Shown: one piece after another, positions 8,042-58,902 of the stretch
How positions within the stretch are numbered: the stretch's first letter is position 1
How the letters are laid out: every line of letters starts with the position of its first letter
Origin: Phoronis australis
Taxonomy: Eukaryota; Animalia; Phoronida
Direction: 5' to 3'
DNA: 59,595 nt
Assembly (NCBI GenBank): GCA_002633005.1
Contig: NMRA01000135.1
Coordinates: forward strand, 1-59,595
Made by a program: the position numbers and the translations under genes
The notes under the pieces: model-generated
Told to the model about the DNA's origin: nothing
The model's input: only the letters and a program-made list of their open reading frames with translations
Database searches by the model: none

Positions 8042-9922
8042 ATGGGAACTTGTTGTCAAAAGCAAACTTATTCTGTAGAAAGTTGGTTTGAACCGCAGTT
8101 GTCCGGAACGAGAATAAAAAGGCAAAGTCGGACCAACGATGATTTCATGGAGGGTAGCCAGGTGCGCCTGTCGGCCCAACAATGTGAAATCTTGCGACAA
8201 ACCTGGGCACAGACGCTGTCGACAGTTGACCAGAGAGTTCATATCGGGATCATGATTATCGTCAGGTAACGAACGGCATGTTATCTTTAAGCTTTCGATC
8301 TTATTTGATACTTCCCAATAGCTGCATAAATTGAGAGGCAACAAAAAGGAACCACGTCTTTCTCGGCTTTCAGAAACAAAGAATCATAATAACATCTGAG
8401 TTAGCAAATTTCGCGCAGCGTACCTTCCATCAAGAAGTCAACTTTTGATTTTGTCCATCTACCGTTATAAAATCGACTTCGTTACTCAGATTAGAAATTG
8501 TTTTGGAGTTAGCGTAGAACCGACAGTTCGTTACTGCATCAGACAAGACTAGGGAATTTTGTTTGTCACAACAGTTTAGTTTCTGCCGCCGAAGCAGTAT
8601 GACCGTCACGGTGATTTCAGTCAACAAATTTCAACCCGACTTTGAGTTGCCCATTAACACAGGCTACAAAAAGTAGTTAGAAATTTTGATAAGGAATTCC
8701 TATTCGAAACTTTTATTAATTCTTGCCTAACAAAACAGTCATGAAGCAGGCCTAGAAAATGTTTACGAAATTGAAAAGTGGAGAGAAAAACACAGATTTG
8801 ATAAAAGTGCAATTAACGCAGTTCTACTTATTCCAAATCAATCGTTGACAGGTTTCTCGACAAGTGTCCCCATTTGGCCAGAGACTTTCATAAAAACCAG
8901 GATGGCAAAAAAGGAAGTCGTCGTGAACGCTTTACCTTTGACACGATTCAAAAAGATGGCGTTGCTGTTGCTCTCGCTAATTCCATGGTGACGTTGCTTA
9001 CGAATTCTATCAACGGTTACCCGAACTTAGCAACAATTCGCTTAAATATGAACAGACTGGGCTTCGAGATGGGAAACAGAGGGATGTTCGCTAAAGATGC
9101 ATCAGTAAGTGGAGTTTGGTTACTTACGTCACACACCCAACAACAACAGTCGGGGATCATTACATGGCCGGCGCAGCGGCATCTATGGTGCGCGCTGCCC
9201 ATACATTAGTGCATGTAGTCAGATGCCTGTCCTTTGTATTTACCAGGAAATATAGAATGCGTTTCATCAATCGTAATACGTCACTTGAAATAGGAATTAC
9301 GCGTAATTACAGACCACTGTGTATACCTATTTGCGTTTTTATTGACTTATTTAAGATGATGATCAAGTCAAGCAAGTTTGATATCGTGGGCAGTTTGAAA
9401 GCCATTTTGTTGGTGCACAAGCAAAAATATATTCTATATTAGATCCTGCTTATTTTATAAATACTACCGATGTCATACATAAAAAGCAAACCATTCGTCG
9501 GTCAATAACTTTTGGCTAAATAAGTTCACATACGGAAATTTTCGTAGCCTCAAGTCCATTTGAAGCACCAGGGATATTATGGTAGTTTTCCTTCCGCGGT
9601 GAACGTTTTCTGCGCATGTCTCAAATTATCCTTCGAGTAAATTACTTGACGGCTCCGATCTATTCTAGCACAAGTGTGATAAAAAATAACGTTGAGAAAC
9701 TTAGCAACGAAGGCTGGCACTCCCAACAAGAGTACAGATTGGTCCCCTCCGCATTTTTGCTATTAAGCTCACGTTGTTGTCCACTCTGTAACTGCATTCC
9801 TTTTGAATGCTCCCTCTCTGTGTATAAGACCCTAGTGTTAGTGCCATCGTTATGAATGAGAAGCACTGGTGCAAACCTTATCCGTCGTATTATACTGCTT
9901 ATAGAATACTCTTGTACATAAT

Positions 9923-9966
<44 letters not shown>

Positions 9967-12900
9967 CGACAATAATAATAATAATAATAATAATAATCAC
10001 AATAATAATAACAAATAAACGGTTTATGTATTATCTGGGGCCTTTTTGAAAGTGCACGAAAAGAATCCTACGCTGAGACCCTCACCGGCCCAATTTAGGC
10101 AACTTCGACCCGTTCGCTAACTTTAAAATCCGCCGTTATCTTCCATACAGCTTCAGCTGATGTAATCGTTCCTGGAAATTAACTTGCCTTATCAGGTGCG
10201 AAATTGCCCATCGTAAACATGGCTGTAAGCACAGGGGGCAATATTGGTATTTTTCAAATTTTCATTTTGAAAGTTTTAAAATAGCATTTTTGAATAGCTC
10301 GTTTAAAGTTCACGTTATAATATAGTTAGGTTTTTGAATTAAAATCGGAGAAAACTAGGATTTTTATATCCCAAAACTAGAATTAATCCGCAACCAGTAT
10401 TCTGTTGGCCGCACAACATAATGGGCCAATTATCAAAGGTCATAAACCAGCAGTTGGCAATTAGGAAAACGAAGTGCCGTCGCCCAATTCTGGGCATGGA
10501 AATTAACGACCCTGCTTATCAGGTTAGTAAACTCAAGTGACTTTCCAAACTAGGAATTAATATACCGAGGAACGTGGTTGTGTTTTTGGCTTTCACGAAA
10601 TCGATCGCACGCTGGAGGTCAGTGCCCGGTTGCATGAAACAGTCCCAAATAGGGTCTCAACTACATTCTCTATATCTATTGCGTATTTTTGTGCATGTAA
10701 AAACACTGATTGTCCTTTCTTATGTTGTTTGAGTATCATTACTAAGCAAATTTTTGGCTTTTTGTATTAAAATACAAATTGAGAGTGAACTCTACGTTGA
10801 AATCTCAATGTCATTGGTCATACGACGCCCCTAATTTAAGGACTACGTCTCTAATTATTTTGATTGAATTAAAGGCTCAGTTTTTAATTATATTATAAGA
10901 ACGTGATTAGTCAAAGATGAGCCCATAATATAGATAAAATGATAGAAAAATAATACAGCTGTGAGTAAAGAAAGAACCAAATACACAAAAGATTTAGGGA
11001 ACTTCGTTGAGTTCGTGTCTGGGGCCGTTTTATGCAACCCTGCAGGCCTCAGGAGCCTTACTTTCATGAAAGTGAGTAAGATTTTTAATACAGAAATTCG
11101 GTTTTACTCTCCTACTTCGCAACTGCTGGGAAAATGTTCAGCTAAGTAATTACGAATGGATAACAATCTAGAAATAATGAATAAAAATTATATCATAGGT
11201 TAACTGTTATGTGTATATTCTCACACACTTTGTTCTTAATTTTGCTTAGAGATTTAATTGTTTTTCAGGAATAGTTGTGTGGAGTGTAACACTAAATTGT
11301 AGTCTTGAGTCTTGTGTAATTTTTCGTGATACAAACTCCAGAAAGAGGTCACCTTTGGAGGTGTTTCATACATTACGAAAACCTGCCGTTTTGTTTCAGC
11401 TCCATACGACAACGGTTTCTAAATCGAGTCTAAATCCAGATATCAGTCTAGTCCATTGTAAAGCGTTCTCGCGATCCGTTGCCTATAAGCACTACTCACG
11501 GTTCAAAGAGTTACTAAAGCATTCATCAGTGCACCTAACGTATTAATGGCTAATTTTTATCGTACTTCTTCGGGTAAAAGTGCTCTTAACTTAAATTTTA
11601 CTTAGAGTTCAATTTCAGAAGCTAAACAGTTCGAAAAATCACCATTTTTTAGTTCACGATACATCAATTTACTTTACCCAGTGTTTTATTGTCGTGAGGC
11701 CATCGCTAATGTGGTAATTCGTCAATTCCACAAAATAAGACCTTAGAGTCGGATATCCTGATTAAAAATAAGCCTCTTGACATCGGGACTTGTACAAATC
11801 TATTGACGATAGTGCAAGATGTCGTGAAACGGGCCTAGTTTCTAAGTGTCTGCGCGTGTTCAAGCTTCGATCACTAGCAAGTCATGAGACTCTCAAAATG
11901 GAGTGCTTTCGAATGTGCCAGGATAACCGTGTGATAACAGAATTTGGAACATCTCGGGTGTGTTCGTAGCCTCAAATTTCCCCTCGGAGATGAATGTTGT
12001 CACACATGTGGGAACTTAATTCACACGAAAATTTATGTGACTTTCAAACTGGAGAAATTGCTACCGGCTTATTACACATGGTACGTAGTTACTTCAGGAT
12101 TTCCGAGAGTTCAAATGAAAAATTGGTTTCTGTGAATCAAGCGTCACAGGAGGTTCAGGGAGACACAGTTCTCTCCGTGACTGGACTCCTTAACCAGCGG
12201 CCATGAATGACGTCACAGGCAGAATAATATTTGAGTACCCCTTTTGTAAACATGAATCCGCCACCTTTACACGATTTTTATTTGGTCTCATGAATTGTAT
12301 AAAGTAAAATGTAACTATTCATTCTTTCATCAAAAGGCGCTCGTTAATTCGTTGCTACAAGTGATTTCTGCTCAACTCGGCCAACAACAAGAATTTTCTG
12401 CCAATTCAATGGGAGCCTGGCAAGCGGCTGTCATGGTGATGATTCCGTTGATTCAGGAAGGAGTGAAGAGGGGCATCATATCTCAGAATGAACGTGCCGT
12501 GGACGTGCCAGGAATCGTGATAACGGATTCAGGTAAATCGTTTTTAAAACCTTAAAAGGGTATTTTATTCCTTGGTTACATATATGCCACATCCCTAGCA
12601 AGCAAAGCAGCGTTTCATGGGTCATTTTGGAACTTACGTCATCACAAAATATTACAGTTACTCTTGTTTCCCACCGCAGGACTCAGGTGGTTTTACAAAA
12701 AGCTTTCTTCGGTCATGTTAGCTACTAACCAGACAAGTCGATAGAACAAATTTTGCAAACTATATCGTATCATGCTACAATTCAGTGTAGAAATATCTAA
12801 GACATCGGCGTGATTATGCCCGTGCACCGACTATTTGTCAATTCTTATTACGATTCAATTAATTTGATCAAAAACCGGACGATCGCCGCACAAATAAAAA

Positions 12901-15900
12901 AGTTCATGTTCAATTCAACGTTTCGTCTTTTCATTAGACATCATCAGGATCATATTTACAACAATTTAGGACAACAAGTGCCAACATACAGCTCAGGTAA
13001 CATCCATAGAGTGAAGTGAGAGATACGTAGAGTATGGTCAGTAGCTGGTCATCACTATAGCTGCAGGGCCACAGAGCTCTGTGGCGCATGCGTAGACGGT
13101 CTGAACTAGATGAACAAAATGACAAGCCTGCTAATATAACAAAGCCAAACAGCGAACGGGCCTGAAGGGACACCATCGCTAAATGAATAAATCGTTTTAT
13201 AAACGGTGCTAAATTATTTCTTTTCCCTATCAACATAATTATAGAATTCAAACTATTTGTGGAAATTTTCGGAATTAAAGATGTATAGCATGAAAAAACT
13301 ATACTTTCGTGAAAATACGTGGGTAGACGGGAGGTCGCTTAAATACCGATTCTAAAATGCATCTTCTATCTGTTTCAGACGGACAGGGCGATAACCCTGA
13401 TTCAAAAGAGTTTTCTTCAATCCAACTCTTAGAAATAGAAAGCGCGTCGTCTGTTGATCTTTCGGTTCATGACGATGGGCCAAACACTCGCGCAGAAGCA
13501 TACACTACAACTTCGACGTTTAAAACCACTAAGGCAACCACACTATCCACGGAGGCAAAAAACAACCTCGGGTTCAATGAGTTGTCGTCTGCTGAATTCA
13601 ACTGTACAAGCCAGAATGTAACTTCCAATGTAGAGCAGGGCGAAACTACAACTGCAAGTGAAGATTTCAGCTTAGATGACTTTATACCCGACATGTCGAA
13701 TCACTTTAACTCAAAAATGGAAACATTGTTTCCTAAAGATGAACTTATGTTGGTTTCAAATTCGTCGTCCACGGCCAGCGTCTCCGGGATTCACGCCGTT
13801 GACATGTCCTCCCTTGAAAACACGACAGGAATGTCAGTAGGGTCGTCAACACCAAACATGGTAAGCTCATGTAATTAAGTTTTGTTGTGCTTAAAACATA
13901 ACTTGCGGATAAATTGACGACAAAGCGCTTCATGGCAAAAACAAAACTTAAATGCCACTATTCTAATTTGGTAAAACTGTGGTATGATAATTGCTATTTG
14001 GGGTCTTGGCCATCTACTAAAAATAACGATAAATCATCATGACACTGATAATTGCAGTGAAGTAAGCAGCCTGAATGTATGACTGAAATGCCTTTGGAGA
14101 GAAAAAACTTCATTAATACAGTTTACATTTGTATAAAATTCCTGGGTCTTTGATCGTTTCCATTCAGGTCAACAAAAAAGGCGAGGCGAGTCAAGAATTC
14201 TTCCTTTCAACACACGATAGTAGCGAGGTCAGAAGCATACAGGCAAATGTTGGTGACGAAGAAGAATATGGACCAAGTAATGCCGTTTCCATAGGTACTT
14301 TAAAATTTGTTCTCTCTCTATGCCCCTCTGAACATCTACGATGACGCAGTGCGCGTGTGTTGACCATGAAAACTGCTCTTAAGCTATATGAGAAACTAAA
14401 ATCAAAATTAGATTCATACTTACCCATACATATTTATCTTACCACAAAACAATCTTTATTTCCGTCGCCTTGATGAACATCAAGGTCATTCAAGAGTCAA
14501 AGAACGTCTCAAAAACCAAAGGGCTGGTAAGACCTTAAATTTTGACACCTTTCATTCAGTTGCAGATTTTAAGTAACCTACACCCTGTATGTGTAAATAA
14601 CTATTTACAGACACGCGTGTGTAGGTAGAAGTCCCTTGGAACACATGTGTGCCTAAATTTTGGAAATCAAAACGTTACTTGTGATATTTGAGAAGCAAAT
14701 TGAACTAAGATATAATACCGGTAAGTAAGGGCCACAGAAAAAGTCGAACGATGAAAGAAGTCAGCAGTACATGCGGAAATATCAACATATTATAAACAAG
14801 CTCGTCTCTTTTTCTTTTTCCCCGTGCCATTTTATCAAGGAGGCGGCTCAGTTTGCCGATTGCTGCAACGAGATCATTTAACAACCATGAGAGTTCTGCA
14901 AATACATTATTATTGTATTATTTGAACATTGTAAACAGGTAGGTAAGATGATAGTCACGAACTGTAGTAACCAAGATTGAAAATTTTGCAGATTCCACCA
15001 GTGAAAAAATGGGCGATGTGAAAGGTGACCATGCAAGTCAGCAACGCGTTTCTGTCAGAACTGAGAAATTTACAACGCTCGTCAAAGAAACTGGTTCATC
15101 TAACGGTGTTCCACAGGACAGCTTCATGAGTGGAAGTCTGACGTCAGAGTGGATGAGGGAGGCTAATGCTAAGGATTCCTTCATGGGGCAATCTGACGAG
15201 AAACCGAAGTACAGCAGCCACTCCCATGTCATTATTCGAACTGAAACAGAGACGAGGGATCAGATGATTGCCTCTGTAACAAGCAACGAAACAGATTGTT
15301 CAACGTTTGATGCCGTGATTACGGCTGAACCTGAATCTAAAGGTAGTGCCAACATTCGAACTGCGAAAGTGCAGTTAGATCGCAGCAGCTCTAGTAGCTC
15401 CAGTGGCAGTGTTGACGAGAAACGCTCAAAAGAGATTGCTGAAGGAGCTGGAGTTTCGTGTTCAGTTTCTGGAGTCACCGTAATGACTCGACAGAAGACC
15501 GATGGAGGCACCAATGTTTCCAACGACGACGACATTAGTTTACTTCGCAGAAGTAGCTCTCGACTTTCCAGCAGCAGTGATAATGATGAAGAAGGCAAGA
15601 CCAGTGATCACAGAAGCAGTTCTCATTGTTCCAGCAACAGTGAAACACTGACCAGTGGTCAGATTGTCTCTGATCTGACAGATGCGAACGAAATTTCTAG
15701 TGCAGCTGAGATGCGTTCTTCCAAAAAGATCAGAAAACATACCAAACACAATTCAAGCCGTAGATCTAGCTCTCAAAGTAACGACAGCAGCAGTAGTACA
15801 AGTGATGGAAGAGAGAAAACTGACGCAATTGAATGTCAACCATCGGATCGTGATGAATTAAATACGAAACAATGGGCAGAAAATGTCACCCAATACACTA

Positions 15901-18900
15901 GTGAAAATATGAATTTCAAACGCAAAAGTAGTTCGTGTAGTTCCAGCCGCAGTGGAGACGAAGAAAAGAAGTGTGCCGTTACTATGCAAACAAGGGATAT
16001 CGAGACCACGTCACATGTTCCGACTTCTGACGTAACCATTGAGATCCAGAGCCAGCAAGTTAGAAAAAGATACGCCATTTTCAGCACTTCGAATGCTCAG
16101 GTGATCAACAACAACAAGACTAAAAGAGGCAGTACTACATATGTCTCAAATTCTGATGTGTCTCTTAATGGAAACATTAAAGCGGTTACAAATAAGAGAA
16201 GCATCTCCAATACAGATAGCAGCAGTGATGATGAAGATGGAAATGTGGAGAGTAGTATATGTGAGAGCACACCGGCAGGCGTCACTAGTGCTGACGTGGC
16301 TCAGAAACTAAGAGAAAATTACACAGATGTCTCGGTTTCATTTACAAATGAGGAACATTCAAGCGGAGTCAGCGTCTTTGCTGACAGTGTGAAAGAAGCT
16401 AATGTTAAAAGAAGTGATAGTTCTAGCAGTAGTAACGACGAGAACAACGGCAAACATGTTCCTAAAGATGCTGACGTCGCCAAGGGTGAATTCCATGAAG
16501 AGAGTATTACCTTCGAAGAAGCAAAGGCTTCAACCAGACAAATAACGCGTCGTAACGTGCCTACAGTGCAAATAACATCGTTTCATGAACCTGACTGCAT
16601 CGGTAGATCAGACCACGTACAAGATGTGAACGAAGTATCTTTTTCGATGAGCCTTAACAAAACTGACGACTTCGCTGATTCAACTCCAGTTATAACTTTC
16701 AACACTGATGCCCAATTGCCACAATATTCACGTGAGCGAGAAAATTGGATAGTGGAAACCACTGCAAGTCATACAAAACGCCTCCATGCTGGATCTTCTG
16801 GTGAGGGTAAAGCTGTCGTACACGTTCCTCTCAGTCCTTTACCAAGCACAAGACGCATCGTTCGAGTAAGTAATAAAACTCAGGATAGTGATCAAAGTGA
16901 AGAAAAATCTTCCTCAGATTCATCCGACGGAATGGCAAGTAATGAGGACGACCCTGACGTCCAGGTGTTAAGAGCTTTGAAGAAATTGACATCGGCGAAA
17001 AGAAAGATAGTTGATGCTGGGGGCGATGTTCATGATACATCAACTTCGAGCTCGAGGGTTTACCGTTCTATTAAGACTGGAAACGATGAAACTGGTGAGT
17101 CCTATTCATGTGCGTCATTGATTAATTTAGACAATGAGTTTCACTTGTCTAGTGGAGACATAGTCGACACTGAAGAAATAGCTTCGGAGCAATATTCCAA
17201 CAAGGTCACCGGTGTAGTGGCAGCAAAAAGATTGTCTACCGGTATGCGACCACAATTGAATATTCTGACAAAGAACACTGATGTAGCTTCACGAGGTTCA
17301 AATGTCGTTTCCACTTCCAGCTCTCTTGAAGACGAACCGCAATTATTACTTCCCAGGGGATCGACCATAGCCACAAAGAGATTAACCAAAACATCTGACG
17401 ACAAGAGCTCTGTACAAAACAGGTCTACAAAATCTACTGACGGAGATGGCACGATGATCACTGTTCAAAGTGAGCATGCGTGTGGAGAGAGCAACAGTGA
17501 AAGTAATGATGCATCTGAGAAATATGAAGCTTCCACTACCAAGAATGAACAAAAACAGCATTTAGGCGACCTTAAAATTCCCGTGTTGTTTGGAAATTCA
17601 AATAGAAATGGTGCAACAGCGAATGATTCTCAAAATGGCTCCCTAGATGATAATGGGAACCACATGGCGCATGTAGTGCGAGATAACATGGATGATAGGC
17701 AAAATAGCGAGACCCATTCTTCAGATTCGTCTGATGGTGAAACAGGCAATGACGTAATGTCGGGTAAACTGGCATCATATGAGATCAGTAATGTTTCGTC
17801 GGAAAGGAAATTGAAACACACAGTTGGAATTAGTACGTCTAGAAATGATCAATGTTTTGAAAGAGCGGGGAACAATGACGACATCGCTGCGGAATCTACA
17901 TTTTCAAATGCATCCTTGGTAAGTTTAGACGACGAATTTCATGCAACTGGTGAAGATATTGTCGAAGCGGAGGAATTGGTAGCGGACGAATATTCCAGCG
18001 ATGCTGGTATAGTAGCGACAAAAAGACTGTCTACGAGTGTAAAACCAATCCTGAATATTTTGAAAGAAAATGCGGAAGGACACAACATCTGTAAACAAAA
18101 TGAAAATGAAAATACTGACGAGGAAGTAGTACAAGGTATCCATAATCTTGTCAAGGTATATGCAACTGAAATAGAAACAGAAGAAATCCCGGGAGACGCT
18201 AAAATTCCAATCTTAACAGGGGTATTCCCAAACACAGAGGAAGTCGAAGAAAATGAACAAACAATTAAGTCTTCAGGTAACGATGAGACTTTTTCGTCGA
18301 AGGCAAATGATGAAAATGGTTTCATGAGAGGACCTTCGTTTCAGACAATTCATTTCAGTTCTGGTAATAATGCGGATGAAGATGAACTCGATTCACTGAG
18401 GGCGGATGTTAAAAATGGACATGTCAGTGATCAGGCAAGGCAAGCTAGAGCAATGCCCTTTGTATCGTCTAGAATTGATGATGATGACGTCACTTTATCG
18501 CGAATAGTTGACAATGGTGAACCCATCAGTGGTTATACGAAAGAAACGATAAACTTTGTGTCGTCTGATGCATATGGCATTGATGGAGACGCTTCTGGTT
18601 ACAATAAACAAGCGAGGTATCGTTTGGCTTCTGATAATGAAGGTAAACATGAAGTTCAAGCAATAGACGTGAATGACAAGAGCAGATCTGTTACAGGCCA
18701 CGCAAACAATACTATGCAATTTGCAATTTCTGGAACAGAGGAATTTTCTGTACCTAGGGAAGGTGAAGATAATGGTCATATTGGTCATACAAAGACAGTA
18801 ACACATTTTGTGACTTCTCGTGATGAAGCTGAAAAGGTTATACGGGAATTAAAAGAAGAAAGGGCTCTTGTCGGAGGTAATATCGAGCAAACAATACATT

Positions 18901-21248
18901 CTGTGACTTCTGGCGATGAAGACGAATATGCTATACGTAAGGTGAAAGAAAATAAACTGGTCGGTGGTCAAGGCCATCAAGAAGATGACTACGTTACACA
19001 GAAAGTAGAAGAAGCAAAAGGACTAGACACTGGTTATACCAATGAAGCAAAACTTCTGACATGTGGTCATGAGGATAAAGATGTTATGCAGCAGGCAAAC
19101 GAAGAAAATGGGCTAATCCGTGGCCATATCAAAGTACATGTTCAGACTCCTGGCCATGAAGACGAACATGTTGTACTGAAGGGAATTGGAGAAAATGGAT
19201 TGGTGAGTGGTCGTACCGGTCAAGTAATGCAGTCTGTGTTTCCTGGTGGTGAAGATGGATACGTTGTACAGAAAGTAGAAGAGGAAAATAGTTCAGTTAG
19301 TGGTTATATCCTCCATGAAACACATCGCCTGAACTCTGGCGATGAAGACGATGGTGTTTCGGCTAACGTAGAAGACGAAAACGGATTGTTCGGTGGTATT
19401 ATTGAACAAAAACATTCTATGAAATTCGATCGTAGATATGCATATGTAAACAACAATGGAGGACTAGCCGGTGGTCCAGTCGAAGAAACAATGCATTTTG
19501 AGACCTCTGGTAATGAAGATGAAATGCAGAAGATAGGTGACGAACATGGATTGGTAGGTGGTCGTACCAAACTAACACTACATTCTGGGATTTCTGACAA
19601 TAAGGATGAATGTGTTGTACCAAGAACAGCCATAGAAAACAGACGGAGTGGTGGTCTTTCCGACCAAACTATGCATTTTGATGATAAAGGAGATGTTGGG
19701 CAGGCTGTTGATCAATTTCATGGAACAGTGCATTTTGTGGAGACAAATGATAATGGTGACAGCGAATACATCACGCAGAACTTGGAGAAAGAGAACATTC
19801 AGCAAACACGAGGTGAAAAGAATGTTAAGATCACAAGTAATTTCCAAGTAACAACGCATTTTGTGGTATCTGGCGATAACAACGACGAACACACTTCGCA
19901 AAGAATACTACTACGTGAGGTTAATCGTGGTGATGACCAAAATGCCGTTGGTCATTTACAGGAACAGATGCATAAAGCTGATTCTCCACATGGGTACGGA
20001 GGGGACGCATCCATTATCAACGGAAGGGACGAACGTCTAATTTTTAATTCACAACAAACGGGATCTTTTAATAGATCGGGTCATGACGCTCTTGGAACAG
20101 GCAGGGGTAAAGAGCACATCACGCGTGATTTTCAAGAAACGAAAACTTTCGTTGGTTCTGGTTATGGAGATGAGGACGCTGAACAGAACGTACGCAGAGA
20201 AAACAAGACCGTGACTAGTCATTTCCAGGAAATTATCCGAGACAAAAATACTGGACAAGTGGCAAATGAAAAAAGTCATTCCCAAGAAACAATTCAATTT
20301 GTTGGAACAGGTGACAATGGTGAATACGCCGTAGAGAAAGATGTTGGCGAACATTCCCACAAAACCTTAAGAATAATGGGCTCGGACAATGGTACTCACG
20401 TCGTTGGTGACTGCCACGGAATATCTATAAAAAGCGGAAAATCGGAACTACCGAATACGGTGGAGACGCGAGTGTTTGTGTCTAAAATAGAAAGAAAGGT
20501 CAGTAGAAGTAGTGACGTTGTTGCATCGAGTAAGTCCAGCGATGAAGAATTTCCGGATATTGTCATTTCACGTGGCAACAAAGCTATTCACGGACGAAAA
20601 GGAAGTCATAAAAGCATTTTGGAATTTGTCCAAGGGGAAGGGTACGGAGAGACTGGAAAGTGCCGTATAAGTATGGCCGATCAAGATTCGGGCAGCCTAC
20701 GCAATACCACAGGCAACGTTAACAGTGTTTTGACTTCATTTAATTCGAGCAATACAGACGCAAAAGATGTCCATTCGGAAAATAATACGTTCGAACCATC
20801 CGCACATGATATCGTTATCAACGAAATTTCAACGATTTCAGGTAGTGACCAGCTACCACCCGCAGCTACGAAAACACGAATGTCGAGTTCGACGATGAAC
20901 TCGGGCGATTTCGTTATTCCAAAGATCGAAGAAGGGCGTTTTCATCGTCTGCAACTTGCAACAAGAGACGGACGAACAGAATGGAGTGAAAGTGATTTAG
21001 TTACAACCCAACCGCTCAGGTGTGATAGCGACTTTTCCAACATTGCGCCTGCTTTTGTAAATACAGGAGGCCACGACAGTAGTGCCGTGGTATACGCCGG
21101 TGAAAACGATGAAGATACTCATCGAGTAGTGACGACAATTGTCGAGACGATTAGAGATGAATCCGGTCACACGATTGAACGCGTCAAGGAGATTGTTACA
21201 GTGGACGGGGTAACAGTCCAAACAACGGAAAAGGAGGAAGAATTGTAG
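8042..21248 (+). CDS. Giant N-acylated globin-domain protein (~2,512 aa): globin X-like N-terminus, degenerate globin fold and long disordered repeat tail; 6 exons: 8042-8265, 8852-9104, 12337-12532, 13379-13860, 14168-14294, 14992-21248
   Basis: All five introns are GT-AG with matching phases (2,0,1,0,1), giving a 7,539-nt CDS with no internal stop. The start MGTCCQKQ sits in an ACCATGG context. Globin landmarks: LSAQQCEILRQTW (helix A, Trp A12), GIMIIVR|FLDKCPHLARDF (Gly B6, Pro C2, Phe CD1), LGFEMGNRGM (F/FG), ALVNSLLQVI (G), GAWQAA (Trp H8). Introns 1 and 2 fall at the ancestral globin positions B12.2 and G7.0. Confidence 0.82.
9919..10013. repeat. Compound (ACA)n(ATA)n microsatellite
   Basis: Direct reading; lies in globin intron 2. 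Confidence 0.95.
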
Positions 21249-23189
21249 AGCAATGCTCAATACCGTCATTGCTGAAGTTATGAAAAGAGAAAGTCCCGTG
21301 CTAGAATGTTGAGAGATATTGATGCTCACTGTAATCTCATTTATTCAAACGTATGTGCAAACTTAAATGGAGTGCATACAGTGGTAAATGGTAAACCGCA
21401 GTTACGGCTACCCGAACTTCCAACATGCCCACGAGTCAAGTCGAAAGTATAACGCACGTGAGAGGAAGCATGCACGAAAGAAATACTCACGCTAGACTGA
21501 GACATAAACGAGCTCATTTAAAAACTATTTGGTAAAATTAAAGAGCACTTGAATTAACATTTTTACCTTGCAATGATTGCGCTTCTGACTTGAAATCCCC
21601 AATAGCATTAGGCCTATAAAAGTTCAACCTGTCGATATATCATCTTCATCTTGTACGACTTTGCGAGGGAGTTTCTGGTGCCGTATTAGCAAAGGTCGTA
21701 TGAACGGTATTAGCCGAGACGGTCGTAATTTTTACCGGCATACAGTTCAAATAACGTGGTTTATGAAGGTGTTCGCTTTAAAAGTGTGAATACACTGGTT
21801 CCCTCAGTCGCCACCATTCACTACCCAGACTGGCTGAGGTCCTTGTCGCACGGTTAGCGGAAATGGCTCTTAATCGAAATAATACGGTCTCGTTCCCCAT
21901 TCTTGCGTTCCTGTTTATGATGAGGGCCGGGGCTAGGATCCACGTTAATAAGAAAAAAGTAGCATAATTTCACAAAAACGGAAGAATAAACAATTGATTT
22001 GCGATTCGTAAGAGGAGAAAACAAATAATATGGAAAATGGTGGCCACGGGTGCCTTCCATGGGTCAGTCATCGTCAGCAGCAGCATGAAAACATGCAGCC
22101 TAAGCAACCAAAAATATGACATTGTATTTGAAAAAATGAACAACTACACTGACCCCATTTAAAGGATGAAAGTTTGAAAAAAATAAAGACCAAAATTTAC
22201 GAATTGCAGTCTCGATGGTTTTATCAATATAAAGCATTTATACGTTTTCACAAAAACAATCCAAGAACAGAATTTCTTTTGAAGAGCGTATTGTTGATGA
22301 AGAGGGAGTTGTTTGTAGGAGACGCTGTAGTACATGTCAATCAAACTGTGGGAGGTATGACTTTTTATGAGCGTGTAACACATTAAGGTGTTCAAACTAC
22401 ACCCACTCGTAATCGTAAACAAAGATTTCTGCGATTTTTTGAGGTACAAGTTTAACTTATAAACCATCTTGAAGTGAAACCGCCGTCTTCTGGGGCCAAA
22501 ACCAAACGGGAGGTTTTTGCAGTTGAGCCAGTTTGCCCCATCGGAAAATAATCACCTTCAATGACAGAAATTCATCAAAATCCTAATTTCTATTCATGTT
22601 TTGGACAAAAGAGCTATAGCCAGTATTAAGGTAAGGCTGTCGCTTGCGAGGCCAACCTATGATGTTACTGTACGGAATTAATATATTAGATTTACAAGAA
22701 CAGCAGTAGTGCCAGTTTCTAGTGGCCGTCAGCACCGGGTGGGGCAGGTGATATAAAACTGAGAGAAATTCACCGAACTGCGTAAAAATTAACCAAAACA
22801 CGAATTTCCAGAGAGTGATTTCAGATTGGAAAAAATCATAATCTTGCACTTTTAGCTACGGGCAAGATAATTTCCCGAATTTCAACCTGCATGCTGAAGC
22901 GTCATCAATTTCTAACACTATTGGCTTCCAGAAGACATAAATTGTCAATAAATTAGTCAACTTTCGTACATAAATAAACAGTTCAGTCAAAAGTTAAGCT
23001 TGAAGGTTACCAGAAGAAAATAGCCTTGACATGTTGGACCGTCGCATGGCAACACAATGCACACACTTCGATTTACTGCCGGTTGCTTTAAAAGTTGCAA
23101 GGATTTTTTGAAATCTGTATGTTTACAGTACAGAATTTTTAGAATGAATTTCTAAAGAGATTCGCGCAGATTTCTTGACTCGCACATCG

Positions 23190-23735: not shown

Positions 23736-24809
23736 ACAAGAGCAACGCGGAGCGTTGAAATGCGCCCACAATTGCACCGCATACGGTATCCCTCTAGGGT
23801 TGTTTATTGGTACCATAAAGTGGCCAGTAGAGGGCATACTTTGCAAAATGGAAAGGCATGGTCAATAGGCTAGGGGCAAAATGTGAGTAATCTTCATAAT
23901 ACAAGCACATCCTATACACCAGTTGCTTAAAGCACCACAGAAACATAGAATTAAAAACAAATTTACCAACATACGAGATTAGCACAGCATTAGAATGCCA
24001 GAAACAAATTTCTACTTGGAACTTTTCCTTCACAGTCACGAAGTAACACAAAGTATACACCTGAAGACCTATGAAAATACAGAGGTCAATGTAAAATACT
24101 AAAATTGCCACTAGAGGCAAATACTAAAATTGCCACTAGAGGCATACCGGTAGTCAGAATCATCCTAAAGTCGTCATCGTCCGTTGTCAACATCACATAA
24201 ATACACTTGCTAAATTTAGTAAAGATCCTGCAAACGGTTTGGGAGATACAGCCATGGGCGCAAAAAAACAAAACTGCCACTAGGAGGCGCCACAGTAGTC
24301 CAAATCGTCTGAAAATCATTGTCAGCTGTCTTCCTTATAGTAAGCACATACACGCCAATTTTCACAATCATCCTTTGAGCGGTTTGGTTGATAGAGGGGT
24401 GGACGCAAAAATACAGACTCGAAAACAGTAAAAATGGCCACTAGGTGGCGCAAACTACGTCGAATCCATCTGAAAACAGTAGGATAGCGTCATCTCACTA
24501 ATAGGTGCCTACATACCAAATTTCATGAAAATCCGTTCAATACTTTTGAAGATACAAAGGTAAGCGTAAAAAACTAAAATTGCCACTAGGGGGCACACCG
24601 GTAGTCGGATCCGTCCGAAAGTTCGCACATGCCGTCCCATTCATGAATGGAACATATGTGCCAAATTTCATGAACGTATGTCAAAGGGTTTTGGAGATAG
24701 AGCAGCGGACGCCGGACGCCAGACGCCGGACGTACGCCGCCCGGACGGACGGACGGACAGAGATGACAGCATAATGCGTCCACATATAAATATGTGGGCG
24801 CATAAAAAT
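23736..24809 (+). mobile_element. Helentron-associated (HINE/DINE-1/pearl-like) non-autonomous element, copy 1
   Basis: Subterminal inverted repeat ATGCGCCCACA/TGTGGGCGCAT, a short terminal hairpin, a (GGAC)n microsatellite, and internal degenerate ~150-bp repeats marked by AAAATTGCCACTAG. A near-identical inverted copy lies at 47825-48909. Confidence 0.8.
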
Positions 24810-25975
24810 GAGAGATCAAAATCTTACGTTTTTTTAATTAATGTGATGACACACGTTTACCGCACATGTAGATACAACATTTTAAGTATTATTCTTTATT
24901 TATCACCTTTCTTAAACAGTTAACGACATTTCCAAGGCTGTCAACGCCTCTATTCATGCAACGGTTTTGATTTTGCTTCCGAAGAACAAGAAGTAACAAA
25001 GCACTGTATACCTAAAACACATTAACGCCACAAATTACCTAACAACGTAGAACGGATAATAATATGGATAAAAGCCGAATGACAGTTACAATTGTCATAG
25101 CGTCCGATATACGTCACAATATTCTGTAAAATAAGATAAGTATACGACAGGAATAACAGACTGTATATGGGACTGAGTGCAGCCCCAAGTGGCAGACGCA
25201 CAGCACTGGACGGGCTTAGAGCGCCTAACCCTAATGTCACCTCCTAGTGCCTAAAGCCTTCCAATGCTCCAGGATCGCTTGTAATACATGGGGAAATTTC
25301 GCGACTCAGGCCAGCAAGAAGGTATAGGGTATAGCACAGCCAGAATCATTCATATTCAACTCCCCCGCAATCACTGTGGCCACCTCAGTAGCAACAAAAG
25401 CTTTCCTTCACTTCAGGGTTGCCACCTGGAGCTTACGCACTAGCCACCCCCAATCCCCCCCCTCCGCTTCCACCGGCCTGCAAAGATGACCAGGAATTTC
25501 GCCAGTTCTCAGGCGCGGGTCTGGGGCTGAACTTATTTTTAAGAAAAGCCTGTTGAATACGAGGAAGCACTTATTTGAAGGATAATCCTAAACCGATGAG
25601 AACACGGGAACCGCTGCTCTAAGGACATCAAAACTAATCAACAAAACACAAAGCCTACACACTGTGACGAGCGAAAACAGGAAACACATTCAAGACAAAA
25701 ACTTATTTACTTTCTGAAAATCAAGGGGTGGAAATAACCGCGCAGTTCCTCGCTTGACAACGCTCACGTGCCGGGTAAACTAAGATTGCGACACACAAAC
25801 ATGGGTCACCCACCGCCAAACAAGAAGCAGGACTCACAAGACATGGCACCCAAAACACACCTGGCGACTTACCAACACGGCTTACCCACCACCCACCATA
25901 GCACACGGTTTGTGACCAAGTTAGCGAGGGTACAACTGAAATTGCATTTTCCCAATTTTCTTAGTAAGCGTTCCT

Positions 25976-27277: not shown

Positions 27278-30200
27278 CTAAAACTGATTGAGATGCTGAC
27301 CATAGGGACCACTGCCAGTGTTGCCACTACCAAAGGGAATCCCATCACTAGCTTCACTGACCTGCAGATTGCATGCATTATATGGACTATAACTGGGTGG
27401 GCTGGACACTGGACTATAGGAATAACCACTTTGCACACAAGGGTTTATCCCAGAAGCCATGTTACCAACAGGATCACATGAACGCACTTCTGCTAACTGA
27501 GGAGATGCCTTCAGATTGTAGGAGTCAAAATACTGCGTTATATTCCTTTTGGCCTTTTCTGGCCAGTGAGGATGGAGTCCGCGGTCTTGCTGAGGTCGAG
27601 TTTGTAATTTATTCTGCAGCAAATTTCCTAGAATGCCTTCTCGAGAGTTAGAATTCTGCGTAAATGGCATCTGCTGATCCCTTGACCATTTGTTAGTGTA
27701 GTGGGACACGGCGAATATTTCCCGCACTTCATTTGAGTATGGCGAATCTGGCGACAAACTGGATTCAACAACTGAAAAGCTTTGAGGATTCAAGTTGAGC
27801 GAAATGGGACGCTGTTGAGCACAACTCTTAGAGCTGCCATAAACCTCCTCGTATCCTCCTACACGGCGACCGTCACTCTGTTGTAATGGGGCATAAAAAC
27901 TGGGTACGTTACGATTCACTTCCACATTTACTTGAACAGGCGCGACAGGTGACGAATCGTACTGAACAGGGCTGTAAACATTTGTGACAGATGAATGCGC
28001 GGATGACACACCCAAACCACAGCTATGATCACCAAAGCTAACCGGTAAACTATACATTATGCTGGCAGCACTAGTACTATTGTCATCACTATCCTTGCTG
28101 TAAATAAAACTTTCAGCAGACTGTTGAACAGCAGAAGATACAGTGCTGATAGCATCGCTGTCTGTGCTATTGTCCCCGTAAGTTTCCTTATAAAATGGCT
28201 TCACAACATCAGGCACACTGTCACCGGATGGTGACTGCACCGGACGGAATTTGCCAACAGGTGTCATGGGTGGGTTCTGCAGTGCACTGTCTGCACGCGA
28301 GACACTTGCCTGCACACGCGACTGACCACTTGTCACAGACAGATTTGTTTCAAGCCACGATACACTAGCATCCATGTGTGATGAAGCTGATCCCAGGCGC
28401 GAGTCATTTGAGTTAGCATATGACACATCAGTGTCGGAATGTGATGAAATATTGCGGGAAATGTTGCCAGTAAATGTGACGCATGTGTTTTCATGTGAAT
28501 TGATATTTTCCTGATGTGATACAACCTTTTCAGGATACGACATATCAATATCACATCCTGAATCCTTGCACGTTAAAAGATTTTTCAACAGTGTCAAGTC
28601 ATCATTGGGTTCCCGGTGTTCAGGATCACTAGCCTGCATTTCTAGCAGTGGTGCAGAATGCCTGTGTTGAGACACAAAACTTGTGTCGTGGAACAAGAAT
28701 GAATTTAGGTCCTCACTATCAGGAAAATCTTGACTGGAGGAGTCGGTATGAGGAAGAAAGTCCAATTCTTTATCAAAGGTTATGTCACACGGAAGATCTG
28801 TTGGTAAAATGCTAAAATGACTTGTTGTTGTCACATCTTGCCACTCGCTGGAAGCTGCAGTTGTCTTGGAGGAGTCAATGACAAGTCGTTTCGAACTTAC
28901 AGTATCAGAAGTATCAGTCGACAGCCTCTTAACACCTCTTGGTGAAAGCACTTTTGGATTTGTTTTGTTTTTACTGATGACAGTTTTACTAGCGTCTGTA
29001 CTTGAAACACTTTTCTCTCCACCATGTACATTTGAATCAGAGAGTCCATCACCTGAACTTTCCAGAGCTTTTACATTAGACATTGGTAAGCTCCCAGTAC
29101 TTGCACTAGATCCTGCTTTGTGCTTTTGACTCTTTAGGACAAGTCTGTTTTTGACAGATTCTTTCACTGCAGCACTTTGCAGCTTGCGCTTTTCCTTCAG
29201 CAAGTTTGCAACAGTCATATTACTATTCCGTGAACTTGAGGACTGTCCTGTACCTACCCTCATTGACTTGTCAACCGGAACTGAAGCACTTCGGACTGTG
29301 ACAAGGGGACTTGATTTGTGACCAAATATAATTACCGATGGCACAGTTGGTGAAATCACAGGAAGTGAATCTGAGGCTGAAGTTGAAACTGCAGTGCCAT
29401 CTGTTGTAGTTGCCATCGTCATCGTTGTTGTTAAAGGCAAGGGCTTGTCCGGACTACTTTGAATAATGTCAGTAGTACTTTTGTTGGCAGAAAGGACAGG
29501 TACAAATGCACTGGGCACGCCATCCTGGGTTATTGGTTGTTTCATTTTCTCTGCAACAAGGGAAAGGTTAACGGATGATAATGAACGTGAACAAACTGAC
29601 CATGTGAACAAACTGACCATGTGAACAAACTGACCATGTGAACAAACTGACCATGTGAACAAACTGACCATGTGAACAAACTGACCATGTGAACTCTAGT
29701 TGTTTTAAGGTAAAGACACGTTACGTAACTAACTATTCGTGTTCATGCCCAAAGAGTTCAAATTACAAAACTCAAAAACCAGGCAGTGGGCATTCTACAC
29801 TGATAAGCTCTTATGACTTTCGGTAAATCGCTTCCCGCTAATGAAAACTTTTCTAAGCCACTGACCCACATTCATTTAAGGCAGTGACTACAGCGAAACT
29901 GACGAGAGACATTGCCTTATAAACTAGCATGAAATCAATGCATTCCAAGGCTGTTTAAAATACAAATTTTTGGAAAAATGACGAGGGCGTGTGCTTTCTT
30001 TAAGTAGTGATGAGCGACTTCAAAAATGACGTGGACGCAGAATAGAACTTAATATGGTTTTTGGCTTAATCACGACGACCAATATGACCATCACACTCAA
30101 AGTCAAGCTACAATAGAATAGAAAGCACACCAACAAGCATTATTTGAATCTAAAAGATTCACGGAATGATCAGATGAAAATAAAAACAAGTTTGCAAAGC

Positions 30201-33200
30201 TCATGACCCAAAAATTTACAACTGAGCAGATTGCGATATCTGGGCATTCTCTTCTAAGTGACATCAATATATTGTCAAAACCAAAATGGAAGTAAGAGCA
30301 CACATCTTGAATTTCACTGCAGGAAGATTAAGACATTTGTATTTCAAGGATAAAAAGAAATTATTACACATAAACTCTGACGACCTTTAGTTCACAAAGT
30401 GCGATCAAGTCCTCGCCAACGTGGAGGTTATTTCTGCAATTCTGAATCTAAAACTCAACATGAAGAGCTTCAGGCAGATAAAAAAGCAGCCATTTTACCT
30501 GATTAAGTTACATGTGCTTTCAAATTGAGCTTGTTCTTCTTTTGCAAACAAACTCAGTAGAAAACAGAGGATGTACAAGACGACTCTAAGGCACTCTTAC
30601 CAGACAGTTTATCATTCTGTTTTTCCAGAAGTTTTTTTTTCAGCTCCAACTTGCCACAAAGAACAGCTGACAGCTGTAACTGCACACTTGGCGCGGTCTG
30701 ACCTTGTTGTTTACAAAGGCGTGATGACAACTGAAGAGAGCTCTTGGACCTTGGATTTACAAACGCTTTAGAGACCAAAAATTCTGCTACAGACAGAAGA
30801 CTTATAAATTCTCGTCTAAAACTTTTCTCTGCCCATTCGCAAATGACAGCTTCACACGCCTCTTCAATTGAATTCGGTTTCTGTAAAACAAAGATTGCTT
30901 TAAAAACTTGCTCCAATTGATTTTTTAAAAAAATTGGCACGGCTGATTGTGATTTTTGTACTTTTTGTAACAAAGTCCCGGAGACTGACATACATATTTT
31001 CTAGGTTTGTAAGATTGTAAAGCCACAAAGAATTAGTTTATTTTGTGGCTAAATCAGATTTTAAATTATAATTTAATTATATCCATTTTAAAAATTCTCA
31101 ATTTTCCGAGTGCTCGGTACTCAAGAAAGCATGACCACCAACAGTTCCCCAGTAAAATTCCGAGCCCAATTTGGCAAATATTACTTAAAAAATCCCGAGA
31201 TTACCAAGTACCGAACTTGAAAAAGTACTCAAAATATACCATGACTTCATTGAAAAATGACAATGATCTTTATCACATCTTCTACTCTGCTGACTGACTG
31301 TGGTGGACGTTAGGTTTCAAATTAACAAATATGCCTTCACGTACAAACGTGCAATTCATTTTCAACAATTTTTCAACTGCTCATCAATAACACAGTACAA
31401 GCCAAAAGTATTCAGACAAAATGATCCGAAATTCCCCCATCATGACAGCTGGACGGAAGCCGAATTCATCGTCCGACTAGTCTTCCCGAATAACCAAGAA
31501 TGAAGAGGTATGAACAGGAAACTTAGTAAGGTGGCTAAAAGCCATTCTTTAATTAGAATTTTGCCACCGTTATAGTAGGTACCAGTCATTTTATCGTCAC
31601 AGTAATCTTCTCATGACCGAGAATGAATGTGGATTAACAGGAGAGTTAGCAAGGTGGCTAAGTCAATCTCTAATTAGAATTCCGTCGCCCTATTATTTAT
31701 TACCAGTCTTTTTGCTGTGAACAGAATTATTGGTTCTGACAGGCAAACAGTAGTTTGTCTCATCACTATTGTCTTGTGCTGTATTTACCTGTTTGGCTTT
31801 TTTGTCTGCCTTTTTCCTAACACCACTGTAACAATACTTGTGGTTCAGTCGGCCACCAAGTCTTCGCTCTTTGACATTTGGAAAGGCGATATGAAACACC
31901 TTCCCAAAGTTGCTTTCACCGATGGACTTTAAGCTATTGCTCTCACAAAAGGCACTGAAATGACAGTGATACAGCACTGAAATCCAACAAGTCAATGACA
32001 GGTACTTGGCTTAAGAGGATTTGACATTTTTTATTTATCGTTGAATTTTTGATTTTTTTTAATATTTTGATTATTTACTACTTGCAAACAAGTGGGGGGG
32101 TCCCCGGTATAGTGGCCCATATAGAGGAACCTCTCCCAAAATGCAAAATTTTCATGCTTAGCCTATTGGATTATAAAAGAAAACCTACATCAAATTAAAT
32201 AAGTGATTGAAATCCTTTTGAAAACATTAATTTTTTTTGGACGATCTCTTAATGGCTTTAATTACAACATCTGGCTTAGTGATTTTCCGACGTTTGCATA
32301 ATTTAATATTTCTCACATTTTAGCTTTTTGGCTTTACACCAAAGGTTGCATCGTTACTTTTTTAAATTTTCAATGTTCATCTTTAATCCTTCATGTTTGG
32401 TCTCGAAACATCTTGATATTGAAACCAGTATCTGACAATCCCAGCAAAACACAGTGAACATAGAGTTAAAACAGCAGCAATCTAAAGAGGGAACATTTTA
32501 GTAGAAACATGTGTGCCAAATGCCAATAAATTCCTATAATGGGCTTAAAAATAGGAACCAGGGCTGAGGGCAATGCAAAATGCATCTACAAATGCATACA
32601 GAAATGAACATTTCACAAGCATGCCAGTGTCATTGGCAAATCAAAAATTCCATTGACGCACATTGATTGCTCAACTCGGGTGAATAGGCACCTTAAAATT
32701 GGGTCTGCGTAATGTGCATTACATTCAGATTCTAACGCAATGGCACCGCAGGACGGCTGAACAAAACCAACATTTGAGATGCAACCAATTGACTTTAGCA
32801 TATTGCGAAAACACAAAAGCCAACTGCGAGCTTACCTGTTTGTTTGAACAAAAATAACATTAGCGTCACGTAACATACTGGGACGACAAACAAAATCACA
32901 AACACGAATGACGTCAAAAATGTGGTCAGAAAAATGTGACTCATATATGGTCTAATCTGACCTATAGTGTTAACAAAGAGCCACGTTTTCTAACATGACC
33001 CTTAGTATAGGAGCGCACAAAAATGAGATGTTATTCATGAATTACCAATAATCTTGAAAGACATCCTTCTTCACCAGTGACTGTCTTGGGTGATACTCAA
33101 CATGATCTTCAATCCAACCAAATGCCTGAGAGTATCCCGTGAACTTGCCTTCTTCAAACAAAGACCTGAAGAACAACATTAAAATTAGAAGCACCATGAT

Positions 33201-39082: not shown

Positions 39083-49421
<10,339 letters not shown>

Positions 49422-50008: not shown

Positions 50009-58902
<8,894 letters not shown>

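Follow-up and report, generated by a model that had tools for sequence, protein, structure and literature searches.

Gene structure and open reading frame

The window, i.e. the whole 59,595-nucleotide stretch of Phoronis australis DNA analysed here, carries on its forward strand a gene whose six exons and GT/AG-flanked introns (phases 2, 0, 1, 0 and 1) give 7,539 nt encoding 2,512 aa in a frame free of internal stops. With its matching-phase GT-AG introns and one open frame, the six-exon gene model is real. This agrees with the preliminary description of the locus, in which exons 1-3 were linked through three further phase-matched introns to a 2,079-aa open reading frame, giving a protein of about 2,512 aa. 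The features are as follows (X1 is one of the RNA runs described below).

8042..8265, forward strand: exon 1, aa 1-75; Gly2/Cys4/Cys5 acylation-type start, N-terminal extension of ~37 aa, putative globin helices A-B; ends at B12, phase 2
8852..9104, forward strand: exon 2, aa 75-159; putative helices C-F with Pro81 (C2), Phe87 (CD1), Leu116 (E7, by spacing) and Met148 (F8)
12337..12532, forward strand: exon 3, aa 160-225; putative helices G-H with Trp187 (H8), then start of the linker; phase-1 donor
13379..13860, forward strand: exon 4, aa 225-385; Ser/Thr/acidic linker
14168..14294, forward strand: exon 5, aa 386-428; acidic linker
14992..21248, forward strand: exon 6, coding part, aa 428-2512; Ser-rich acidic tail, predicted to be disordered
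17037..18077, forward strand: duplicated block of ~80 aa (aa 1110-1191 and 1375-1456, 39-49% identical; self-comparison E down to 9e-14)
18738..19694, forward strand: degenerate repeat with units of ~29 aa (aa ~1677-1995; about ten copies, judging from the spacing); self-comparison offsets 60-230
21249..22200 (end approximate), forward strand: 3' UTR; X1 sense depth 8.1, 4.2 and 1.3 over 21127-22600

The start codon at 8042 has an ACCATGG context and is preceded by an in-frame stop 21 codons upstream. Exon 2 ends just before G7, in phase 0. The long open reading frame at 14955-21248 spans 2,097 aa from stop to stop, or 2,079 aa counted from its first Met, and an alternative in-phase AG at 14968 for the exon 6 acceptor would likewise keep the frame. 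By a crude score, the exon 4 acceptor was the best of five and fell in the top 0.5% of local AGs; among local sites, the donor and acceptor of intron 3 ranked in the top 3% and top 0.5%, respectively. Candidate polyadenylation hexamers are located in the 3' UTR at 21537, 21985 and 22182. The predicted protein has a mass of 274 kDa. No second globin-like copy was found in the window, and there were no Rfam matches.

Transcription and splicing

Transcription was assayed with three raw-read RNA runs (X1, X2 and X3) chosen by species label, about 18% of X1 being examined. Splice joints were counted when present in at least 3 reads, and statements on joints refer to those listed, in one case a part of the total. 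Sense-strand RNA from X1 was detected on 6/6 exons at 2-6x, with zero depth in five intron bins. Depth was 5.2-5.9x on exon 2, 5.1x on exon 3, 5-5.8x on exon 4 and 2.6x on exon 5, and sense depth varied from 3 to 13x along exon 6. The predicted exon edges were the points where X1 depth fell to zero. Expression was low overall and strong in only one of the three runs; X2 and X3 displayed zero depth on exon 3.

Two of the five predicted joints were found among those listed: 8265/8852 (intron 1; 4 reads in X1 and 2 in X2) and 13860/14168 (intron 4; 4 reads in X1). Therefore, splicing follows the model between exons 1 and 2 of the head and between exons 4 and 5 of the tail. The joints 9104/12337, 12532/13379 (head-to-tail) and 14294/14992 were not among the joints listed, none being recorded at 3 reads. 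Thus, of the three junctions singled out for an RNA check in the preliminary description, 13860/14168 was recovered, while 12532/13379 and 14294/14992 did not appear among the listed joints.

In X1, the bins flanking exon 3 (12093-12312 and 12533-12752) had zero depth, and coverage at the beginning of exon 4 was about 4x (4.3x, if the 34 exon bases in that bin carry all of its depth). Part of intron 3 is masked by a repeat at 12857-13081. The earlier model would have failed if transcripts ran through to the stop at 12555; since exon 3 was covered at ~5x, the 220 bases past its donor at zero and the start of exon 4 at ~4x, such read-through was not seen. From these depths, we infer that the head-to-tail joint is present.

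Resemblance of the head to globins

The head was aligned by hhalign to a profile of 71 bacterial globins. The alignment scored 22.8 over 124 columns, colinear from helix A to helix H; none of 300 shuffled sequences reached this score and none aligned 100 columns. The corresponding hhalign probability, 15%, refers to this profile of exclusively bacterial sequences. In hmmsearch the head scored 5.7 bits, as did or exceeded 2 of 1000 shuffles.

Arg75, Pro81 and Phe87 are separated by 6 and 12 residues, as are B12, C2 and CD1 in myoglobin, and Phe87, 6 residues after Pro81, aligns with the CD1 Phe of the profile. Moreover, both head introns occupy ancestral globin positions and phases. Intron 1, whose joint is present in the reads, lies in phase 2 within Arg75 (B12.2); intron 2, placed by sequence and depth, lies in phase 0 before Ala160, twelve codons past the F8 column (G7.0).

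In the ESM Atlas, the top three clusters for exon 2 were all globin (best score 0.86, taken as a lead only), and the rows with a named family for exons 2 and 3 were globin, with scores below 0.9. Pfam, in which the globins are family PF00042, returned no match for the five exon pieces or the long open reading frame, each scanned alone, and no globin was present among the PDB sequence matches of exons 1-3. A single-sequence fold of exon 2 was all helical (pLDDT 54), with no Foldseek match at E<=0.001, and that of the last 866 aa of the tail had a pLDDT of 31. Neither fold was counted as evidence, because alignment-free models score low regardless. Altogether, the weak but shuffle-controlled profile match and the intron positions indicate that the head is most likely globin-derived. 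The globin-type head of the preliminary description is thereby retained, with one correction: the proximal His is missing (Met148), which had been overlooked.

The haem pocket

The proximal His (F8) of the profile aligns with Met148 (codon 9069-9071). In the first 300 aa, His is found only at positions 67, 82, 88 and 255, residues 89-254 being His-free; thus no register shift can recover an F8 His. Helix E contains no His. From the E7-F8 spacing of globins, E7 corresponds to Leu116, in an E-helix register that is uncertain (Gln108 is nearby), so that E7 is probably Leu instead of His. Given Met at F8, the head is probably a haem-less, globin-derived domain. A scaffold or sensor, in place of an O2 carrier, had been suggested at the outset. 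The role other than O2 transport holds, but the sensor option is weakened by the replacement of His by Met at F8 and, probably, by Leu at E7.

The N-terminus and the tail

By inspection, the N-terminus (Gly2, Cys4 and Cys5) forms a myristoylation/palmitoylation-type motif, consistent with the membrane-type head proposed previously. Cys is absent from position 3, unlike in the MGC motif. Hydropathy analysis revealed neither a transmembrane helix nor an obvious signal peptide (maximum of 1.26 for a hydrophobic 19-mer), and a secreted or skeletal-matrix role was set aside for this reason.

Ser, Asp and Glu make up 30% of the tail, which has a pI of 4.85 and 81 S/T-x-x-D/E sites. In the tail, 80% of 51-aa windows were predicted to be unfolded, versus 24% in the head. 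The tail, described earlier as a Ser/Asp/Glu-rich repeat tail, is thus repetitive only in part, with the one duplicated block and the one repeat region. A profile made from six repeat copies detected three more, one of them at 7.9 bits versus a shuffle maximum of 1.3. The tail displayed no Pfam domain and no recognisable output domain.

Within exon 6, X1 and the reference differed at 5 synonymous and 19 non-synonymous codons, none of the 24 being a stop. This 5:19 proportion fits the neutral value of 22-28%. Among the indels listed, both in exon 6 were in frame (6 and 9 nt) and both in the 3' UTR were out of frame (1 and 2 nt). The tail sequence is thus close to neutral, a pattern equally compatible with drift and with a spacer.

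Homologue searches

Exon 2 was recovered in 0/62 candidates among proteins of 148-2000 aa, and the long open reading frame in 0/7,975. Metagenome contigs gave 0/176 pattern matches, exact look-up 0/4, and a plasmid search two matches at E 2-3. The two phmmer matches among 1.84 billion representatives were bacterial repeat proteins summing 20 and 9 weak stretches, and were rejected. As a control, an exon of the neighbouring gene, taken to be RFX-like and hence presumably conserved, likewise gave 0/753. Since the control exon was also missed, these negative results carry no information on age or conservation.

Interpretation

A globin-like head lacking the haem-holding His, followed by a tail predicted to be floppy, suggests that the protein is probably a membrane-anchored scaffold and not an oxygen carrier. 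In its full form, the reading that we put at about even chances is a single transcript encoding a haem-less globin-derived head, lipid-anchored at the inner face of the membrane, and an acidic disordered tail of 2,300 residues acting as spacer or scaffold. Gly2 would be myristoylated and Cys4 and Cys5 palmitoylated, as in acylated animal globins. The globin fold suggested by the alignment would serve as a compact structural module, through self-association or by holding a partner or a small hydrophobic ligand in the pocket left empty. The tail, judging from its composition and near-neutral pattern, may act via length, charge and phosphorylation and not via exact sequence. Such a gene could have arisen from a three-exon acylated globin gene that gained a phase-1 donor just past helix H and acquired three downstream exons.

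A more far-reaching version is possible, if doubtful: the protein would be the first representative of a conserved family of animal proteins, whose acylated globin no longer carries haem and, as the head, docks a giant disordered cortical scaffold to the membrane, and the vacated pocket (Met F8, Leu E7) would read a lipid or redox cue steering tail assembly.

It is unlikely that haem is still bound via Met148 (or a nearby Met, Tyr or B-CD His) in a membrane redox or gas sensor with output through the tail. Phe87 is kept at CD1, Met falls exactly in the F8 column, and cytochrome c, b562 and bacterioferritin use Met as an axial ligand of haem, but Met-only proximal ligation is weak and Met is usually paired with His. 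Acylated globins are proposed as redox sensors in the cited passages (PMC7457136, PMC3520999); however, helices E to H of the present head are His-free, E7 is apparently Leu, the tail offers no recognisable output, and a literature search on Met at F8 gave no papers with four of its five terms.

Quite unlikely is a globin duplicate under relaxed selection, which would have given up haem binding, taken in downstream sequence as one long exon and retained little function. The neutral-looking codon differences of the tail, the strong divergence of the head from globin profiles, the low expression, strong in one of three runs, and the lack of homologues (in searches that missed the control exon too) are all compatible with it. 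However, among the differences listed, the 6.3-kb exon is open in two diverged sequences and indels keep the frame in the exon and not in the UTR; moreover, the gene still has intact splice sites and structural landmarks and an intact acylation-type start.

Two genes or two main transcripts, with exons 1-3 forming a short globin-like gene of ~230 aa and exons 4-6 encoding a disordered protein of their own, are very unlikely. The in-frame stop at 12555 lies past the exon 3 donor, polyadenylation-type hexamers occur at 12893, 13186 and 13274, in-frame ATGs are present at 13357 and within exon 4, and the head-to-tail joint is missing from those listed. Nevertheless, X1 depth stays even across exons 2 to 4, drops to zero directly beside exon 3, and is restored at the very start of exon 4, and both splice sites of intron 3 rank high. 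Finally, a chance globin likeness of an unrelated helical domain, to which the missing invariant His, the Atlas scores and the lack of single-exon Pfam, PDB-sequence or Foldseek globin matches might point, is highly improbable in view of the colinear alignment unmatched by shuffles, the two ancestral introns and the globin rows of the Atlas for both exons.

Acylated globins occur widely among animals, and what they do is unsettled. A natural variant whose fold, lipid-anchor motif and ancestral introns appear to be kept without the haem His would separate a membrane or scaffold role from haem chemistry, and a haem-less head can be tested on a 170-residue fragment. The absence of a Pfam match for any exon means that genes of this kind would escape globin surveys, being annotated as 'uncharacterised' or broken up. 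Should the present gene turn out to be restricted to a single species and its tail to be drifting, it would be a curiosity.

Comparison with known systems

The N-acylated animal globins (globin X, globin X-like and the sea-anemone acylated globins) are described in the cited passages as single 3/3 domains of ~140-240 aa, with His F8 kept in 15/15 amphioxus globins and highly conserved in cnidarian ones; membrane protection, redox sensing and protein-protein contacts are suggested as functions (PMC7457136, PMC7771090, PMC6077788, PMC3087553). The present protein shares with them Gly2 and an N-terminal Cys, a short N-terminal extension, what is probably one 3/3-type globin domain, and introns B12.2 and G7.0. 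Unlike them, it has Met at F8, probably Leu at E7, and 2,288 aa beyond the domain; with 2,512 aa, it is roughly ten times as long as the acylated globins described there. Globin X and X-like have His at both E7 and F8, whereas the present head has neither. The central intron E10.2 described for globin X (PMC7457136) is also absent here, exon 2 being unbroken from B12 to G6.

Loss of the F8 His is described for Puriana HbL2 and for Daphnia HbL, where F8 is Tyr or Val; the authors doubt that O2 is bound and propose another function (PMC7457136). The proximal His is similarly replaced here, but CD1 Phe is kept, F8 is Met and the tail is giant, whereas those globins are mono-domain as described, with no long tail mentioned in the cited passage.

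Non-haem globin modules are known from RsbR and the sensor domain of a Bacillus sporulation kinase (PMC7475203) and from the pseudoglobin of Synechococcus NOS (PMC12922734). As in these, a haem-free globin fold, here predicted from sequence, would be part of a larger protein. However, these bacterial modules are joined to folded enzyme or signalling domains, with no lipid anchor described in the cited passages, whereas the present module belongs to an intron-bearing animal gene and precedes a tail predicted to be disordered.

Androglobin, with its calpain-like domain, IQ motif and circularly permuted globin (PMC7475203; also PMC13696810, PMC11077535, as far as their cited passages go), is likewise a large chimera of animal origin that contains a single globin domain. 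Unlike androglobin, the present protein has no Pfam domain in its tail or in any of exons 1-6, and its putative globin is N-terminal, with helices A to H in order.

Gene structure and surroundings

The gene is real and expressed. All six exons proposed in the preliminary description are present and join through GT-AG introns with matching phases (2, 0, 1, 0 and 1 for introns 1-5) into an uninterrupted 2,512-aa frame with no internal stops. An ACCATGG context surrounds the start codon, an in-frame stop lies 21 codons upstream of it, and the predicted product has a mass of 274 kDa and a pI of 4.9. The window comes from an intron-rich animal.

Exons of the globin gene and the neighbouring gene
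8042-8265, + strand, exon 1, GT-AG-bounded, open joined frame
8852-9104, + strand, exon 2, GT-AG-bounded, open joined frame
12337-12532, + strand, exon 3, GT-AG-bounded, open joined frame
13379-13860, + strand, exon 4, GT-AG-bounded, open joined frame
14168-14294, + strand, exon 5, GT-AG-bounded, open joined frame
14992-21248, + strand, exon 6 (coding), GT-AG acceptor, open joined frame
27278-33212, - strand, adjacent gene oriented towards the globin gene, ORF and upstream pieces

The neighbouring gene contains an ORF of 805 codons, rich in Ser, at 27278-29695. Upstream of it lie pieces at 30557-31000 and 33045-33212, which we take to resemble the RFX5/RFX7 DNA-binding region; Pfam gave no supporting match and no homologue was found. 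This minus-strand gene is usable as a synteny anchor. At the intronic repeats 10620-11010 and 12857-13081, each strand is covered and reads number in the hundreds, some with loose ends or joints to the opposite strand; these repeats probably belong to abundant mobile elements of hairpin type whose transcripts originate elsewhere. Two adjoining copies of about 550 bases (33952-35046, 96.6% alike) meet at the window's single N (34492) and are probably an assembly overlap, not a true duplication. A 1.1-kb element is present in two copies of opposite orientation (23736-24810 and 47825-48909, 94% alike), a 500-base direct repeat lies at 2189-2691 and 54428-54934 (92% alike), and intron 2 holds a compound (AAC)n(AAT)n microsatellite (9923-10011).

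Loss of the proximal haem histidine

The preliminary description overlooked the loss of the proximal haem His (F8) in the globin-like head (exons 1-3): in both profile runs, this column aligns to Met148. Histidines are found in residues 1-300 at positions 67, 82, 88 and 255 only. Helices E to H are devoid of His, and therefore no register shift can restore the F8 residue. Leu116, placed by the usual spacing in an uncertain E-helix alignment, presumably corresponds to the distal position E7. Judged by the standard criterion, the head is not a haem-binding globin, and it probably lacks haem. Precedents for F8 replacement exist but are rare. All three key residues are retained in 173 of 187 arthropod globins, and another residue takes the place of F8 His in Puriana HbL2 and some Daphnia HbL (PMC7457136). 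F8 His is retained in 15/15 amphioxus globins (PMC3087553) and highly conserved in a cnidarian set (PMC6077788). A haem sensor with a Met ligand would be in keeping with Met148 in the F8 column; we consider it unlikely.

N-terminus, tail and sequence variation

By inspection, the N-terminus carries Gly2, Cys4 and Cys5, and may be acylated. Similar dual acylation signals are described for globin X-type proteins (PMC7771090), although the MGC motif is not matched exactly. Ser, Asp and Glu make up 30% of the tail (residues 225-2512, pI 4.85), which contains 81 S/T-x-x-D/E sites, and 80% of its 51-residue windows are predicted to be unfolded (24% in the head). Neither a transmembrane-like stretch nor a Pfam domain was detected in the tail. 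Self-comparison revealed one duplicated block of ~80 aa, whose copies share 39-49% identity, and, at residues ~1677-1995, a degenerate repeat of ~29 aa; the preliminary term 'repeat tail' thus fits a minority of the tail.

RNA data consisted of three raw-read runs from one study aligned to the window (X1-X3) and one contig set; the X1 sample represented ~18% of the run. At many positions, nearly every X1 read disagrees with the window, so the run derives from another individual or lineage. Of the 40 X1 difference rows listed, out of a set with 344 more, the 25 in exon 6 were analysed and the 15 in intronic repeats were excluded. The exon 6 differences among those listed affect 24 codons (5 synonymous, 19 non-synonymous, no stops), for a neutral expectation of 22-28% synonymous. 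Listed indels measured 6 and 9 bases in exon 6, and 1 and 2 bases in the 3' UTR. In this small sample, selected by read depth, the exon 6 reading frame looks protected and its sequence looks free. A relaxed duplicate with little function would account for the free sequence and less readily for the protected frame; we regard it as rather improbable. Homologue searches with the gene returned no relative, but a control exon from the neighbouring gene was likewise unmatched, so this carries little weight.

Probable single transcript across head and tail

X1 exon reads share a single orientation, corresponding to + strand RNA in a usual stranded library. With a listing threshold of 3 reads, two of the five predicted joints were listed. 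That of intron 1 was spanned by 4 reads of X1 and 2 of X2, that of intron 4 by 4 reads of X1. Of the junctions proposed earlier as a check, 13860/14168 was therefore recovered, whereas 12532/13379 and 14294/14992 were absent among the joints listed; the joints of introns 2, 3 and 5 each had fewer than 3 reads in the ~18% of X1. In a second alignment of the runs, 17 joint rows ranked after repeat-derived joints and fell outside the listing. Exon depth was converted from 220-base bins, assuming that a bin's depth sits on its exon bases. X1 depth was 5.2-5.9x in exon 2, 5.1x in exon 3 and 4.3x where exon 4 begins (34 bases), then 2.6x in exon 5 and 2.0x at the exon 6 start; it climbs to 8-13x toward the 3' end and extends ~900 bases beyond the stop. 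Sense depth was zero in bins 9233-9452, 12093-12312, 12533-12752, 14293-14512 and 14733-14952.

Read-through to the stop at 12555, which the preliminary description named as refuting the fusion, was not seen: X1 reads end at the exon 3 donor, indicating that exon 3 must be spliced onward. The next exon with coverage is exon 4, which is phase-compatible and has the best of five acceptors by a crude score. Part of intron 3 is masked by the repeat at 12857-13081, and exon 3 depth is zero in X2 and X3. From depth and phase rather than listed junction reads, we infer the head-to-tail joint, and it is highly probable that one transcript spans head and tail exons. Two separate genes would explain why this joint was not listed, but not where X1 coverage ends, and are very improbable.

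Within intron 2, bin 9453-9672 shows sense-only depth of 1.5x in X1, with no coverage there in X2 and X3; it may be a repeat, a cassette exon or unspliced transcript. Expression varies strongly among runs, X1 covering the whole gene, X2 being weak and X3 almost nil, so the gene may be restricted to particular tissues, stages or conditions.

Probable globin ancestry of the head

Scanned singly, no exon matched Pfam, nor any globin in the PDB sequence search. As leads only, exon 2 had globin clusters in all three top rows of the ESM Atlas (best 0.86), and the highest-placed row with a family name for exon 3 was globin (0.84, assigned to 30% of members). A globin profile was built from 71 bacterial sequences (PF00042 domains found in 98/401 genomes). 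With hmmsearch, residues 37-206 scored 5.7 bits, a value reached by 2/1000 shuffles (reversed sequence -1.0; no tail window above 0.5). The score with an earlier profile of 31 sequences was 4.5 bits, exceeded by 2/500 shuffles. With hhalign, the bacterial profile aligned over 124 columns, colinear from helix A to H (score 22.8, probability 15%); none of 300 shuffles matched this score and none aligned 100 columns. Trp187 aligned to the H-helix Trp.

Independently of these scores, intron 1 splits Arg75 in phase 2, and Pro81 and Phe87 follow at +6 and +12, which we take to be the spacing of B12, C2 and CD1. Intron 2, in phase 0, lies twelve codons past the F8 column. Ancestral globin introns are placed at B12.2 and G7.0 (PMC7457136, PMC6077788). 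The globin head proposed earlier is supported by a weak, shuffle-controlled profile alignment and by intron positions. The head very probably descends from a globin and may retain the fold; that it is no globin at all is very improbable.

Proposed mechanism and comparison with known systems

The mechanism that we consider most likely, at about even odds, is as follows: lipid anchors would tether the protein to the inner face of the membrane, the globin fold, retained without haem, would form a compact unit for docking or dimerisation, and the acidic tail would serve as a spacer and phosphorylatable scaffold. Of these elements, gene structure, expression, His loss and tail composition were observed directly, and the head-to-tail joint, the fold, acylation, the absence of haem and the scaffold role were deduced.

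The gene was not assigned to globin X or androglobin, since the histidines of the former and the domains of the latter were not found. No comparably long tail on an animal globin was described in the full-text literature searched (few subscription journals, main texts without supplements); published supplements could contain a long or His-less cnidarian globin. By its probable descent, the gene resembles acylated animal globins. In its proposed mode of working, it resembles bacterial globin modules without haem: RsbR and the sensor domain of a kinase (PMC7475203), and the NOS pseudoglobin (PMC12922734).
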